This document shows, piece by piece, positions 6,001-21,788 of a stretch of 21,788 nucleotides of DNA. Source of the DNA: an archaeon (GTDB lineage: Archaea; EX4484-52; B79-G9); assembly GCA_043813875.1 (NCBI GenBank), contig JBDRKP010000025.1:1-21788 (forward strand). The letters are read 5' to 3'. Each line of letters opens with the position of its first letter. Within the stretch, counting starts at the first letter, position 1. Made by a program: the position numbers.

Positions 6001-9000
6001 GGAAGACATATACGGATGAGTGATCAAAGCAATATAAATGCCCTCAAACAGCAAATGAATAGCCCGCAAACCTGAGAGTCTCATGCAGCAGAGATGCATG
6101 CTGCACAAAACTTCAAATATTTGTGCAGTCAATATTCGATAATCATAATGATATGCTTAAAGAAAAAATAGAGAGATATAAGTGATAAAAATGCCCATCA
6201 GATTCACAAAGATGCATGGAATAGGAAATGACTTCATAATCATAAACCGTTTTGAAGAGAACATCGAAGACATCAATATAAAAGACCTCGCCATAAAGAT
6301 GAGCGACCGCCACTTCGGAGCAGGCTCAGATGGTATCATCCTCATCATGCCCCCAGAGTCAAAAGAAAACGACTTCAGATACAGGATATTCAACCCCGAC
6401 GGCTCGGAGGCTGAGATGTGCGGAAACGGCATGAGATGCGCAGCCAGATACGTCTTTGACCACAACCTGACAAAAAAGACAAAACTGCGCTTCGAGACAA
6501 AAGCAGGCATAATAAAACCGGAACTGATCCTTGTGAAAGGCCATGTAAAAGAGGTGCGCGTGGACATGGGCGAACCGGTACTGGAGCGCGAAAAGATCCC
6601 GATGCTCGGACCGGCTGGAAAAGTAATCAACGAAGACCTGAAAGCAGGCAACAAGACAGTAAAAGTCACCTGCGTCTCGATGGGCAACCCCCACTGCATA
6701 ATATTCGTCGACGACACGGGATTCGACGGATTCGAACAGCTGGGAAAGGCGATAGAGACCCACAGATCATTCCCGAAAAAGACAAACGTAGAATTCGTAA
6801 AAGTATTGGACAGAAGCGAGATAGACATGCGCGTCTGGGAGCGCGGCGCAGGTGAGACGCTTGCGTGCGGCACAGGGGCTTGCGCATCAGCAGTCGCATG
6901 CGTCCTGAACAAAAAGACCGACAGGATCGTCACAGTCCACCTGTTGGGCGGCGACCTGAAGATCGAATGGGACAAAGACACCAATCATGTCTTCATGACA
7001 GGGCCTGCAGTTGAGGTTTTTGAGGGCAGATGGAAATGCTCATAATTCTTAATCCACTAATATTTGACACGAAAACTCAAGTATGCAGACCATACATACA
7101 GAAAACAGTTCCCATTATTTCCTTCTTACGACGAGAGTTACCGGAATGTCACCATTACACCCGTATGAATAAAGCATAATGGGAATGGTAACTCTATGTC
7201 TTTACCCCTTACTTCGCTAGGGGTCAATCGCCATTATGAAATTGGTTTGTAGGAACTTACAGGGGCTTTAAGTCTTTCTCGCGGAAAAACAAAAATCGCA
7301 TCACTGCGAGTTCTTAAATCCTCTTTTAGGATTTATGCGAAGCAAATAGCTCATCTGCAAATAGAGTTTCTTTTATAGGGTATAATTTTCCATCTTTGTC
7401 AATTACAGAATATTCTTGCTTTCCAAACAATTCATTTGCAGCTTCAAGTAATTTTTTTCCATGAAAGCTAACATTGCCCTTCTTCTTAGATACAAGTTCG
7501 CATATGTCCCGATATGTATTTTTATCCAAAGCGTCAGCCATTCCCTTGAGATCGTTCATGAATAAAGCACTTAGAGGTCTATTGTTGTGAGATTCGTCAA
7601 GAGACTTGATAAACTCCCGAAGAGTGCCACTGCCACCATTATTCTTTTCGACAAAAGCAGTTTTAATTAATTCAGGACTTGGTATAAGATAGCCATCTTT
7701 ATTTAAGTATCCTACCGGACCCAGTAAATCATTCAAAAGGATGTAAACACCGCCATAAAACTCACCAATCCTGTCTTCACTTATAAGCCTTAGAGGCTTA
7801 TTGCCTATATTGTTGACAGAATTGGCATTTACATCGAGTGCTCCTCCAAATCCGGAAAATATGCTCCTTCGCAAATCAGGCCAATTATAAAGGGATTCAA
7901 CTGGTTGTTTAACATGGGATGAAGAAGCAGGTTTGCTTTTTTCAACCGGCTTTTTGCTGAAGTCTATGCCCATATGATCGCAATAGATTCCACCTTTATC
8001 TGTGAGCACAAACTTATTATTTATATATTTAACCAGATTTCTATTTTCTAGATAGTTAATTGCTTGATCGATATCTTTAGGAGCGCCATCGTAAAGCTCG
8101 TGTTTTTTCAGAACGTTAGAGAGTTTGCCTATTGAATTTATCGGGCCCATTTTCTTCTGTTCGTAGTATAGAAGCGTCTTTAGAACGTCATCCTTGAGCT
8201 TATCGAATTTATTGTAAAATCCTGCGCTTTTTAATGTATCAACACCTTCTTTTGTGGGCCAGAAAAGGTAACTCGCAATCTCTTTATTAGCCAATTCATC
8301 ATAGTAGGCAGATACCTCTACCTTTTCTACGAGCCCGAGTTCAAGTAATTTATCAACCGTACTTTGAACAGCACTTTCAACTTTGCGCCAGCTTGAATCA
8401 TAATTCTTACGTGCATCGAATTCAAATCCGGTTTTGCCGTCTTCTATGCGCAAATTCTCGTATAATTTATCCATTTCTATGGGATTCAAATTATTTAATC
8501 GATCAGAAGTGCTTTGTAAATTTGAATATATTGGTGGCTCTTTGTTTTTTCCACCATTTTTGGAACGCATATTCGTTAATTTCCATGTCAAATCCTGGGT
8601 TGAGCCCACAGTCATATCTTTTCTAATTTTATCCAATACAAGCATGTAGGTCATAACTTCGCCAACATCTGATAAATGATATTTAGCAGCATCATTGGAT
8701 CTATATTTCTCAGAATTATCTCCACTAATCGTTATTTGACCGAGGGGTTTATTTTCACTAGGCATAGTTTAATCACCATTGAGTTGTTATTGATACGCAT
8801 AATTGCGCTGATATCTTTAAATAGTTTACTTCTCTCAAGTGAATACGATGCAGTTAACAATAAGAATTATGTCCTCTCCTGAATTAATGGTAGTCTCCCC
8901 ATTAAGTACTGATAAATACTCTGCAAACATGAACATATTTAAATATTCGTCTTAAATTAATCATATATAAGTTGTAACGTCTAAAAAACTCAATTTGGTG

Positions 9001-21000: not shown

Positions 21001-21788
21001 TTCTCAGAATGATACTCCTCACGGAGCGCCCTAAGCTCAGTCGTCAAAGCGATATTATCATGGAAACGCTGTATGAGCTCCTTTCTTTTCTGCTGGCGGA
21101 GCATGGAAATATGAAGCTTGATGCTTCTTAAGTCATCAAAATCAATGCATTTCGTAGCGAACAGTTCCTTGTCCTGTATATCGCCATCAATATCCTTGAT
21201 AATCTCCTCATGTATCTGGTTACGAAGCTCAACCGCCTTGCTGATCTCAGCAATCCTCTCTTCAAGAAATCCCACACGGTCAAAAAGATTGCCTATTATC
21301 TGCGAACCTGCGCATCGAAGCTGCCTGACCTCCTCAGGATCTTCCCTCGGAACAGCTTCCCTCTGCATGATCTTTATAGAATCAGGCACAATTTCAGGCT
21401 TTTCATCATCATCTATCTCGGCAACCGGACGATTGGCAATCTTATAGAGGAGCTCTTCTTTAGACGCATCCTTATACGTCCTTTCGATATTTTCTCCTTC
21501 ATAATCCTGCTTCATCTGCTCAGGAGTCTTGTGTGTCATATACTCCTTAGACCGTATATAATCGCGTTTTTTCTCCTTGTACATTATAACCATTCCTTAC
21601 TCATCATCTAAATGGGCGCGAAGTAAAGACACCCCAAAGGATTAGAACTTCAAAGTAACAATAACGATGTTTCTACCAACAAGTAACTTTATAAATGTTA
21701 CGCCAACGCCTATAATAATAGGGCAATGCCTGTGCATGGAGAAAACACATTGTAAATACATATTGTACATAATAGATAATACATCAGA

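Follow-up and report, generated by a model that had tools for sequence, protein, structure and literature searches.

The question raised by this locus is whether a run of genes with few or no relatives, centered on a VirB4-like ATPase, encodes a transfer apparatus, and where that run begins and ends. The window, by which we mean the whole stretch of 21,788 nt that was analyzed, comes from an uncultivated groundwater archaeon whose genome assembly is 1.64 Mb in 90 contigs.

Extent of the island

The island consists of g00441-g00450 (about 7046-18788, 11.7 kb) and is without a coupling ATPase, because orthologues of g451, the next gene, are present in other genomes, mostly with g452 adjoining. 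Our reading, held with somewhat more confidence than doubt, is that this segment is a horizontally acquired accessory island in which the seven minus-strand genes from g450 to g444 form an operon for a minimal T4SS-like apparatus of the kind used by single-membrane cells. The first-pass annotation had described a 14-kb island of 12 genes. Eleven ORFs of at least 100 aa do lie where it had put them, but the 14-kb extent did not hold, and we did not find its twelfth gene, g00443: the ORFs within 11067-11261 measure just 27-71 aa. On a repeat search, the E-values that it quoted from Pfam and NCBIfam came out identical, as did the rows of g444 in the ESM Atlas, and a hydropathy scan agreed with the membrane topologies given for g444-g450.

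The ATPase g444

Several comparisons place g444 (11262-13991, minus strand, 909 aa) in the VirB4 family, as an ATPase of the VirB4/TraC type whose N-terminus carries a fused VirB3-like membrane hairpin. When the three-member g444 family was compared by hhalign with nine bona fide VirB4 proteins, the match had a probability of 97.7% and an E-value of 1.7e-12 over 422 columns (query 228-683). It includes the VirB4-specific N-terminal domain (residues 227-375; 12867-13313, minus strand). For g451 and for a second ATPase family from this phylum, by contrast, the alignment to that profile starts only at Walker A. With the N-terminal domain alone, g444 scored 36.4 (E 2.7e-4, 139 columns), compared with 19.5 for the reversed query, 21.2 for the best of 20 column shuffles, and 11.5 and 16.1 for the N-termini of g451 and of a further ATPase family in the phylum.

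The hairpin is a pair of hydrophobic helices with VirB3/PrgI-like topology at residues 18-59 (13815-13940, minus strand; hydropathy). Neither a Pfam PrgI match nor an hhalign match to the PrgI-like protein of G038, a genome of the same phylum, was found for it. Atlas rows 6-7 align g444 from residue 1-2 onwards to clusters of 980-aa "PrgI family protein", and together with the hhalign result this bears out the VirB3-VirB4-type fusion that had been proposed.

The P-loop ATPase domain spans residues 418-723 (11823-12740, minus strand) and is followed by a further C-terminal domain of ~150 aa. Walker A (GESGSGKS, 12687-12710) and the Walker B region (ELYLEE, 12111-12128; both minus strand) are invariant in all three family members and line up with those of the G038 VirB4, although Walker B ends in Glu-Glu where VirB4 proteins usually have Asp-Glu. 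All three members match AAA_10 (best E 3.2e-8), and one matches P-loop_TraG (E 8.9e-4). In the ESM Atlas, g444 aligns by structure to VirB4, TraE and PrgI clusters at TM 0.60-0.70 over 645-728 residues, and its feature matches include a cluster named "DNA import protein CedB" (0.92). The only PDB sequence match is an FtsK P-loop. Judged by sequence, g444 is an outlier within its family: it falls short of the curated threshold of each model (AAA_10, 22 bits where 27.5 are required; VirB4_plasma, 15 where 590 are required), and a tblastn search of plasmid records that returned 1235 matches for the G038 VirB4 returned none for g444.

Candidate pore and pilin genes

The stop codon of g445 (13996-14832, minus strand, 278 aa) is 4 nt before the start of g444, and hydropathy gives the protein about 7 hydrophobic segments. 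We regard g445 as a candidate VirB6/TrbL/CedA/TedA-type channel protein from its topology, its gene position and one language-model lead. That lead, which the earlier VirB6 reading did not have, is an Atlas feature match of 0.93 to TrbL_4/TrbL_5 clusters with 209/256 features shared; all ten best named matches fall in one clan, a result that a third of shuffled proteins also reach. The sequence tests, in contrast, were negative or marginal. Pfam gave no match even at E 10, and hhalign against the multi-TM protein of G038 scored 23.1, barely above the highest score among 60 multi-TM controls (21.3). The AlphaFold2 model (pLDDT 45) was too poor to use.

Three small minus-strand genes, g447 (15881-16207, 108 aa), g448 (16210-16551, 113 aa) and g449 (16562-16903 from the second Met, 113 aa), each encode a signal-like helix followed by two hydrophobic helices (hydropathy). 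The g449 ORF extends to 16966, and the 113-aa form is the version recorded in the protein collection. Topology and gene position make them candidate VirB2/TedC/T4SS_pilin-type subunits. AlphaFold2 placed helices at 3-26, 34-69 and 72-107 of g447 with a pLDDT of only 56, and the N-terminus of g448, which is 24% identical to g447, resembles a signal-peptidase I site (...TVSG/EV). The Pfam T4SS_pilin model had no match in G000 with an E-value of 0.01 or below, hhalign scores of the three proteins (10-17) lie inside the range of 60 control ORFs, and no pilin was among the Foldseek matches of the pLDDT-56 model.

Surface proteins and the remaining genes

The genes from g449 through g444 are separated by only 1-10 nt. 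Between the pore and pilin candidates lies g446 (14834-15877, minus strand, 347 aa), with gaps of 1 nt to g445 and 3 nt to g447. Its product begins with a signal peptide, continues into an extracellular domain with many N-x-S/T sites and ends in a membrane anchor; it matched no Pfam or NCBIfam family. At the head of the operon, g450 (17033-18454, minus strand, 473 aa) has an N-terminal signal, PKD-type Ig domains (PKD E 5.2e-8), an acidic linker and, at the C-terminus, an anchor of the PGF type (...TPGFGF, a TM helix, then RRMRR; Heimdall-CTERM E 0.026). Both had been called surface proteins, g450 with a PKD domain, and the signal and anchor of each were recovered by hydropathy. We count g450 in the operon by position only, and it may not belong, because a homologue (46% identity) in genome G015 sits among unrelated genes.

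The other two genes encode soluble proteins. For g441 (7326-8765, minus strand, 479 aa) there are weak winged-helix signals (Pfam HTH_45 E 0.011 only) and no match in the PDB. The sole plus-strand gene of the island, g442 (9006-11066, 686 aa), matched nothing in Pfam, NCBIfam, PHROGs, PADLOC, the PDB, phages or plasmids.

Distribution

We compared the island genes with 41 other genomes of the phylum, which are 57-96% complete, so a missing match is no proof of absence. None of the 41 matched g442, g445 or the three small proteins. For g444 there was a single weak match to the ATPase part only (in G041, E 2.9e-5), for g446 a single match over 100 aa (E 1.4e-4), and for the C-terminal 140 aa of g441 weak relatives in 4/41. 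A g444-type cluster is missing from all seven relatives of the same genus. The earlier statement that the locus occurs in none of the 41 genomes fails for g451 and g452.

The genes are also not all orphans, as had been thought. Among billions of proteins, g444 has exactly two relatives (67% and 62% identity) and g445 exactly two (58% and 55%), and both sets of relatives share two contigs (110,258 and 43,498 bases), so the pair is found on three contigs in all. The g450 homologue and the weak relatives of the g441 C-terminus likewise count against that description, while for g442 no relative was found. Orthologues of g447-g449 were not found either, including on the two related contigs, in a search that depends on shared 5-residue words. 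The distribution of the island is accessory.

Gene order and comparison with known systems

The island has three small VirB2-topology proteins, a surface protein, the 7-TM protein and then the VirB3-like hairpin fused to VirB4. The G038 element runs from two tandem T4SS_pilin genes through a 316-aa multi-TM protein and a PrgI-like protein to VirB4. Among Gram-positive plasmids, one from Lactococcus and one from Enterococcus have a TrbL-like protein (246/283 aa), then PrgI, then VirB4, and the Lactococcus plasmid has a TrbC/VirB2-like 91-aa protein upstream. This match in gene order supports the T4SS-like reading of the set. As to its kin, the balance tips modestly towards a highly divergent, minimal T4SS-like gene set related to Ced/Ted-type or monoderm-type systems.

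Ced and Ted are described in the part of PMC9905601 used here as VirB2, VirB6 and VirB4 sets without recognizable sequence similarity to each other. The Ted system of Thermoproteales consists there of the TedC pilin, the 7-TM VirB6-like TedA and the VirB4-like ATPase TedB. By that description, Ted is like the island in having a small pilin with a cleavable signal peptide and an adjoining 7-TM protein beside the ATPase, in being without VirD4 and relaxase, and in having components beyond BLAST recognition against other systems (PMC9905601). Unlike the island, which is absent from its own genus relatives, Ted is, as far as that account goes, chromosomal and kept across an order. The island also differs in its three tandem pilin-like genes, its VirB3-VirB4 fusion, the two surface proteins in the operon, and a host that is a groundwater archaeon of another phylum. 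Ced (Sulfolobales and Desulfurococcales; CedA, CedA1, CedA2 and CedB with CedD and CedE) shares the VirB2/VirB6/VirB4-type composition and the one-membrane cell. However, Ced divides the VirB4 N-terminal domain over two proteins, CedB and CedD, whereas g444 aligns to part of that domain at residues 227-375 within a single protein, and what the CedD model matches, at 50 of the required 600 bits, is the host gene g451 and not the island.

Monoderm conjugation systems, G038 included (PrgI/VirB3, a CD1110-family VirB4, a TrbL-like VirB6 and small TrbC/CagC-like proteins), have the same order and sizes as the island. Fused VirB3-VirB4 proteins are known there too, in the 980-aa clusters mentioned above, and the G038 element shares the tandem pilin genes. 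The island differs from these systems in the Glu-Glu Walker B of g444 and in being without VirD4, a cell-wall hydrolase and a relaxase. Archaeal conjugative plasmids and ICEs (pNOB8 type, pT33-3, thaumarchaeal), in the portions of PMC6563490 and PMC12857230 consulted, resemble it as accessory, patchy elements with a VirB4 homologue and no relaxase. They carry a VirB4 and VirD4/TraG ATPase pair along with an integrase and replication genes, and in many cases TFIIB or ParB, none of which beyond VirB4 was seen in the 11.7-kb island, and the median size given there for those ICEs is 64 kb (PMC6563490, PMC12857230). Finally, the T4SS of Patescibacteria is described with an array of six sequence-divergent VirB2-like pilins of the same topology beside a monoderm-type T4SS, which resembles the island; by the same description, that system belongs to bacteria, includes VirB1, VirB8 and VirD4-like components and is indispensable for an epibiotic life, none of which is evident for the island (PMC12857230).

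Proposed working and alternatives

The mechanism that we propose is taken from homologous systems. If the system is active, g449, g448 and g447 would be exported by Sec, lose their signal peptides and remain in the membrane as two-helix hairpins, to act as VirB2-type pilin subunits or pilin-like parts of a channel. The seven helices of g445 could form a VirB6-type membrane pore or assembly platform. There g444 would be tethered by its own fused VirB3-like hairpin, and as a VirB4-type hexameric ATPase it may power subunit extraction, assembly and substrate passage. On the cell surface, g446 and perhaps g450 could mediate cell-to-cell contact. The substrate would most likely be DNA moved from cell to cell, possibly in either direction: the island may be the transfer module of a mobile element that transfers itself, or it may serve Ced/Ted-like DNA exchange.

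The same apparatus might instead serve protein secretion, an adhesive or contact filament, or uptake from neighboring cells, which we think unlikely. A non-DNA role has been proposed for the Patescibacteria chromosomal T4SS with its pilin array, which, like T4SSs without VirD4, is on record in the part of PMC12857230 consulted. Such a role would also fit an island without a coupling ATPase or DNA-processing gene, an operon with two surface proteins, one of them with PKD domains, and the best Atlas structure rows of g444, which are archaeal clusters with Nanobdellota as the commonest phylum. However, the nearest minimal archaeal sets, Ced and Ted, transfer DNA and are also described without VirD4 (PMC9905601), and no effector-like gene was seen in the island. 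A weak further argument is that the host, at 1.64 Mb and with dapF, an aminotransferase and purD, is unlike an obligate epibiont.

It is rather improbable that the locus is not a T4SS at all, with a VirB4-like ATPase recruited elsewhere (a provirus, a vesicle-forming plasmid or another element) and g445 and g447-g449 as unrelated membrane proteins. All of the non-ATPase assignments draw on topology and position, the ATPase domain of g444 matches the defense-associated PADLOC model mad8 (E 8.1e-10), its best Atlas feature match is a cluster that is 67% viral, and g441 and g442 have no assigned function. Against this, g444 has the VirB4-specific N-terminal domain, the gene order is that of a T4SS locus, none of the island genes has a PHROG match, and searches of a viral contig collection and a phage collection found no relative.

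The host gene pair g451-g452

We rejected g451 (18789-20960, minus strand, 723 aa) and g452 (20961-21593, minus strand, 210 aa) as island genes. They form a two-gene operon (18789-21593) conserved in the phylum: full-length g451 orthologues at 44-79% identity are present in 15/41 genomes, with weaker matches in 15 more, and g452 adjoins g451 in seven of eight loci examined and lies 3 kb away in the eighth. Within the genus g451 is 62-79% identical, close to the 74-79% of DapF, and we therefore consider it vertically inherited. Its product is a HerA/FtsK-type ATPase, soluble and with a winged helix at the C-terminus; g452 is an acidic protein with no family match.

In the earlier version of the island, g441-g452, this HerA/CedD-type protein was a CedD/TraG-type component and would be a second, DNA-translocating motor of the T4SS. 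We find this quite improbable. It is true that g451 shares the strand of g450 and lies 334 nt upstream of it, that it matches CedD (E 1.7e-13), DUF87 (1.9e-10) and TrwB_AAD_bind (3.7e-4), that Ted loci are, in the portion of PMC9905601 cited, often adjoined by HerA-like genes, and that the island machine could still use a host ATPase. But g451 has no membrane helix, its CedD score is far under the cut-off given above, the TrwB match covers only 38 residues around the P-loop, every genome with an orthologue is without g444 and g445, and in four relatives its neighbor is instead a PadR-like gene.

Borders and composition

The flanks of the island are two different host loci that are separate in relatives, which may reflect a rearrangement or a chimeric contig. 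On the left, host dapF (6182-7045, plus strand; DAP_epimerase E 1.1e-70), upstream of which the gene order is as in G006, is followed by a non-coding junction (7046-7325) before g441. On the right, 334 nt (18455-18788) separate g450 from g451, and DNA similarity to G001 begins only within g451, at ~18953. No direct repeats of at least 10 nt were found between the left junction and the contig end or the start of contig C59, no tRNA at the left junction or in the island, and no relaxase, integrase, replication gene, att repeat or coupling ATPase within the island. GC is 0.374 in 7046-11200 (g441-g442) and 0.457 in the rest of the island; the genome as a whole has 0.438. Relatives also differ from one another in the order of genes upstream of g452, so this place is often rearranged. 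That the locus is an inactive remnant of a mobile element, or an artefact in which contig C25 joins DNA of two places or strains, is highly improbable: the separate flanks, mosaic GC, missing mobility genes, 90-contig assembly and public runs that cover the region only as 240-609-base contigs (junctions bridged by 0 of the 32 listed of 148) would fit it, but the eleven ORFs are all intact and tightly spaced, g444 and g445 keep full-length identities of 55-67% to their relatives, as under selection, and the variable order beside g452 is seen elsewhere. By pattern match only, a consensus scan placed a terminator-like hairpin on both strands at 11232-11252, where g442 and g444 converge.

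Extent of the island

Our best reading of this region is an accessory module for a minimal T4SS-like apparatus resembling those of monoderms or archaea, and the proposed parts are pilin-like subunits, a VirB6-like pore, a VirB3-VirB4 motor and one or two surface proteins. The source genome is 1.64 Mb in 90 contigs and 91.5% complete, and the window is the whole of its contig C25. Ordinary host genes occupy positions 1-7045, with products that are a metallo-beta-lactamase fold protein, dCTP deaminase, an MtrA-like protein and DapF. They are arranged as in a relative from the same genus. 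From 7326 to 21593 there are eleven ORFs of at least 100 aa, ten of them on the minus strand. The first-pass annotation had counted twelve genes here; the twelfth, g00443, could not be placed, and the interval between g442 and g444 holds only ORFs of 27-71 aa. Its Pfam and NCBIfam values and its ESM Atlas rows were reproduced exactly, and the membrane topologies it gave agree with a hydropathy scan. The genes from g449 to g444 are 1-10 nt apart, and upstream of g449, at a distance of 66 nt, comes g450. A gap of 334 nt separates g450 from g451, which g452 adjoins directly. GC content is 0.466 in the host part, 0.374 in g441-g442 and 0.457 in the remainder, and the whole genome is at 0.438.

The 723-aa g451 is a soluble HerA/FtsK-type ATPase with a C-terminal winged helix, and g452 is an acidic protein of 210 aa with no family match. 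g451 had been proposed as the second, CedD/HerA-type motor of the island, but by distribution it is a conserved host gene. It is matched in 30 of the 41 other genomes of the phylum and has full-length orthologues in 15 of them (44-79% identity), which are without the T4SS-like genes of the island. Full-length orthologues are present in six of the seven other genomes of the genus. Identity to these genus relatives is 62-79%, much like that of DapF (74-79%), which argues for vertical inheritance of g451. We fetched eight loci (L054-L061), and the g452 orthologue is directly beside g451 in seven and 3 kb away in one. On the other side, a PadR-like regulator is the neighbour in four of the eight (genomes G001, G003, G037 and G038); the copy of this gene in the source genome is in the middle of contig C28. 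We conclude that g452-g451 is a conserved host operon of the phylum. Upstream of g452 the gene order is not the same in G001, G003 and G004, and in G001 an rve-type integrase/transposase gene (L054:5665-6723, contig C65) is found just upstream of the g452 orthologue.

The architecture of g451 also differs from the transfer ATPases it was compared with. A VirD4/TraG/TrwB coupling protein has an N-terminal membrane anchor and a nucleotide-binding/all-alpha domain and is encoded with its T4SS, whereas g451 carries no TM helix by hydropathy and matches TrwB_AAD_bind over residues 112-149 only. CedD combines a TM domain with a HerA-like ATPase domain and a portion of the VirB4 N-terminal domain; the N-terminus of g451 scores only 11.5 against the VirB4 N-terminal domain, and the whole protein reaches 50.1 bits against the NCBIfam CedD equivalog, for which the cut-off is 600. 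For genome scans the lesson is that a HerA-type ATPase seemed to be a partner only by adjacency, and its distribution marks it as a host gene.

Because g452-g451 is a host operon, the accessory island is g441-g450 only, roughly 7046-18788 or 11.7 kb, and the 14-kb borders drawn earlier, which took in g451 and g452, have to be given up in view of the distribution among the 41 genomes.

The island sits at the meeting point of two host neighbourhoods. Either its arrival was accompanied by a rearrangement or the contig was joined wrongly. An aminotransferase gene follows dapF in three relatives (G001, G002 and G005), and the copy in the source genome is on contig C59. For this reason C59 was at first taken to continue the island, a reading that was abandoned once g451 and g452 proved to be host genes. 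The spacing between dapF and the aminotransferase gene is variable within the genus (window 7046-7325; L026, L027, L028): it is about 90 nt in G001 and contains an ORF of 232 aa in G002 and one of 452 aa in G005, and in the source genome the adjacency is broken. At the start of C59 an HxlR-type regulator gene is cut off by the contig end, so that no more than its last 29 codons remain (L031, G000:C59:1-1800); next to it is a 500-aa protein without a family match that is 50% identical to the 452-aa extra ORF of G005.

Public sequencing runs have the region only in pieces of 240-609 bases. Identical pieces over host and island parts alike come from three groundwater runs of two studies, and one soil run has pieces from about 87% identical up to identical. 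The runs hold no joints, and no piece bridges a junction among the matches listed (32 of 148). With pieces this short and none listed that bridges, the runs decide neither whether the joins are correct nor whether the island excises. No RNA run was listed among those matching the region.

g444 as a VirB4

We identify g444 as a VirB4. Single-sequence methods gave little beyond a P-loop. AAA_10 scores 22.0 bits (cut-off 27.5), VirB4_plasma 15.2 (cut-off 590) and conju_CD1110 15 (cut-off 325), so g444 reached the score of no curated family model in Pfam or NCBIfam. AAA_10 is matched by all three members of the g444 family (g444 and its two relatives). With the g444 profile, the only match in the PDB was an FtsK P-loop (E 0.0029), and a tblastn of g444 against 72,556 plasmids gave no match.

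The assignment comes from profile-profile comparison. Our VirB4 reference alignment had nine proteins, one from G038, a member of the same phylum, and eight from bacterial and archaeal plasmids. The G038 protein matches P-loop_TraG at E 6.4e-25, and 1235 plasmid records were found with it. Against this alignment hhalign gave the g444 family a probability of 97.7% and an E of 1.7e-12 over 422 columns (query 228-683, template 72-556). g451 also aligned (97.0%, E 1.1e-10, 314 columns), in the ATPase domain only (template 247-597). When the g444 family was compared with a family of 590-670-aa ATPases of the phylum, the match (93.1%, E 3.1e-7, 275 columns) was likewise limited to the ATPase domain. 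All three are HerA-FtsK/VirB4-type ATPases, and g444 is distinguished from the other two by the stretch before Walker A.

We aligned this stretch separately, using g444 residues 61-417 and the VirB4 columns before Walker A. The N-terminal domain alone scored 36.4 with hhalign (E 2.7e-4, 139 columns, residues 227-375). The controls were a reversed query (19.5), the best of 20 column shuffles (21.2), the g451 N-terminus (11.5) and the N-terminus of the other ATPase family (16.1). In this comparison g444 has a VirB4-specific N-terminal domain ahead of its ATPase domain; its residues 60-226 did not align to the VirB4 N-terminal domain with hhalign. The Atlas model of g444 (pTM 0.53) aligns over 645-728 residues, with TM scores of 0.60-0.70, to clusters named VirB4-like CD1110, TraE, archaeal TraC-like and PrgI family, and these structure alignments begin at residue 58 or earlier.

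At the N-terminus, hydropathy places a two-TM hairpin at residues 18-59. It fits a fused VirB3, since the Atlas alignment to fused 'PrgI family protein' clusters begins at residues 1-2. Pfam PrgI had no match in g444, and neither did the G038 PrgI-like protein when the g444 family was aligned to it with hhalign. The Walker A motif GESGSGKS is intact and invariant in all three family members. Walker B is LYLEE in all three, with Glu-Glu instead of the canonical hhhhDE (Asp-Glu), and HerA-type proteins likewise have EE at this place (VLEEAH in g451, LLEEAH in PDB entry 8j4u). In their C-terminal domains g444 and g451 are unlike each other, and neither domain matched a family.

Other components and gene order

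g445 has about seven hydrophobic segments by hydropathy, and its stop codon is 4 nt from the start of g444. As in VirB6, TrbL, CedA and TedA, this is a polytopic membrane protein (5-8 TM helices) adjoining VirB3/VirB4, and the pair of g445 and g444, or of their relatives, is found on three contigs. By Atlas features it resembles TrbL_4/TrbL_5 clusters (0.93, 209 of 256 in common), which we regard as a lead only; its ten best named hits all belong to one clan, and a third of shuffled proteins also reach ten. Pfam gave no match for g445 even at E 10. With hhalign it scored 23.1 against the 316-aa multi-TM protein of the G038 T4SS, and this is marginal next to a maximum of 21.3 for 60 multi-TM control ORFs of the same genome. 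An AlphaFold2 model from three sequences had a pLDDT of 45.4, too poor for use.

The three small proteins g447-g449 have the topology of VirB2, TraA, TedC and T4SS_pilin: about 100 aa, in which a signal peptide is followed by two hydrophobic helices with a short polar loop between them, as judged from hydropathy and the sequences. One of the two T4SS_pilin proteins of G038 (105 aa, with a signal peptide and two hydrophobic helices) has the same layout. AlphaFold2 modelled g447 with its two paralogues at pLDDT 56.4 and placed helices at 34-69 and 72-107 with low confidence. Similarity in sequence or fold to a conjugative pilin family was not found. T4SS_pilin (PF18895) had no matches at E 0.01 or better in the source genome, and hhalign of the small proteins against three pilin references gave 10-17, inside the range of 60 control ORFs. 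Foldseek of the g447 model at that pLDDT gave no PDB match at E 0.001 or better; designed helical bundles and 14-3-3 proteins headed the list, and there was no pilin among the matches listed.

Gene order provides the strongest argument for a T4SS-like assignment of these other parts. In the island the order is three proteins of 108-113 aa, the surface protein g446, the 7-TM g445 and the VirB3-VirB4 fusion. G038 has two tandem T4SS_pilin genes (PF18895), the 316-aa multi-TM protein, a PrgI-like protein and VirB4. A Lactococcus plasmid has VirD4, a 91-aa TrbC/VirB2-like protein, a 137-aa ORF, a TrbL-like protein of 246 aa, PrgI and VirB4, and in an Enterococcus plasmid a TrbL-like protein of 283 aa is ahead of PrgI and VirB4.

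For the remaining genes, g441 and g442 are without a match to known families; g442 had none in the PDB, phages or plasmids either, and g441 had none in the PDB. The C-terminus of the second surface protein, g450 (17033-17120), has TPGFGF, a hydrophobic helix and RRMRR, and it looks like a predicted sorting signal of the PGF-CTERM archaeosortase type.

Distribution and mobility

We searched 41 other species genomes of the phylum, which all belong to one order and are 57-96% complete. The island had been described as found in none of them. This holds for g442, the g445 family and the three small proteins (0 of 41 in each case). It does not hold for g451, found in 30, or for g450, which has one full-length homologue, 46% identical, in G015, where the flanking genes have no counterpart in the window. 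Matches to the other three are weak: the g444 family profile has no real match and one ATPase-only match in G041 (E 2.9e-5), g446 has a single 100-aa match (E 1.4e-4), and the last 140 aa of g441 are weakly matched in four genomes.

The island is rare, although the term orphan goes too far, as g444 and g445 have two relatives each. Among 5.8 billion protein clusters and 1.84 billion representatives, those of g444 are full-length at 67% and 62% identity, and those of g445 are at 58% and 55%. Both pairs are recorded on the same two contigs, of 110,258 and 43,498 bases, and therefore the g444-g445 pair is conserved on three contigs. In a search that relies on shared 5-residue words, a profile of the three small proteins matched nothing but the three themselves in the 5.8 billion clusters. 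Scans of genome, metagenome and viral contig collections gave no related loci; the viral contigs were scanned with g444, the g444 family, the g445 family and g451.

A Ced/Ted-type domesticated system is chromosomal and conserved across its host lineage, whereas g444 and g445 are missing from all seven other genomes of the genus (68-89% complete). Presence in one of eight genomes of the genus and on three contigs worldwide is more in keeping with a mobile element than with a domesticated system. The island shares with integrative-conjugative elements an accessory, patchy distribution at a variable chromosomal site. Such elements also have an integrase/excisionase, att repeats and often a tRNA target, and in the comparisons made the island is without these. 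Despite its mobile-type distribution, no mobility gene is visible in it. Pfam found no integrase family in the island, and the three integrase (tyrosine-recombinase) genes of the genome are all on other contigs. No tRNA or Rfam family was found in the window, and there was no direct repeat of at least 10 nt between the left junction and the contig end or the start of C59, a comparison that left out the right junction (18455-18788). A sigma-70 promoter scan gave sites not above shuffles, and the sigma-70 model is inapplicable to archaea. One 451-aa tyrosine recombinase (L063, G000:C55:1676-3031) has gatB and a CARDB/DUF11 surface protein as neighbours on a contig of 6.4 kb, with no link to the island.

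Possible function

Few archaeal lineages are known to have conjugation-like DNA transfer (Sulfolobales plasmids, Ced, Ted and one Thermococcus plasmid), and conjugation-like elements have been predicted in Thaumarchaeota and haloarchaea. T4SS-like sets in archaea are already known, and divergent ones are expected. What is unusual here is the isolation in sequence space, the small size and the single-chain VirB3-VirB4 with a HerA-like Walker B. Broad literature searches on Ced and archaeal T4SS gave no description of this protein family.

By analogy, the likeliest job of a T4SS-like apparatus of this kind would be DNA transfer. Archaeal conjugative plasmids and predicted ICEs, as portrayed in parts of two papers, carry VirB4 with VirD4/TraG and no relaxases (PMC6563490, PMC12857230). 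The apparatus could instead serve protein secretion or a contact function, which we think conceivable and less likely than DNA transfer.

If the T4SS-like module does transfer DNA, it may represent, next to Ced and Ted, a third and independent line of minimal VirB2/VirB6/VirB4 machines for DNA transfer in archaea, a possibility that we hold tentatively and would sooner doubt than assert. Its carrier would be a mobile island of small size in a mesophilic, uncultivated archaeon of groundwater outside Thermoproteota. It would have an array of three pilins and a single-chain VirB3-VirB4 motor whose Walker B is Glu-Glu as in HerA, and it would lack a coupling ATPase. Its divergence would be such that just three copies are seen among about 15 billion predicted proteins. 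A functional VirB2/VirB6/VirB3-4 module this small would widen the known range of such machines and would show how far components can drift with gene order and topology kept. It would also be a compact seven-gene set with which to probe the needs of a minimal pilus-and-channel machine.

Related ATPases and T4SS loci in the phylum

Another family of the same phylum has a Pfam-recognisable monoderm-type T4SS (L030, G038:C25:38000-57999; L034) with a VirB4 of 802 aa. The neighbours of the G038 element are Cdc6/Orc1, AbiEii, a DNA methylase and a type I specificity subunit. AAA_10 is matched at E 0.001 or better in 34 of the 42 genomes of the phylum, in many of them through the 590-670-aa ATPase (L007-L014, L017, G000:C75:18527-18976). 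With hhalign this ATPase, which served as a control, matches the ATPase domain of VirB4 (E 3.9e-19), and the VirB4 N-terminal domain is absent from it. In G020:C54 and G031:C8 there are open frames of 10,914 and 12,145 aa, respectively, with AAA_10-like P-loops.
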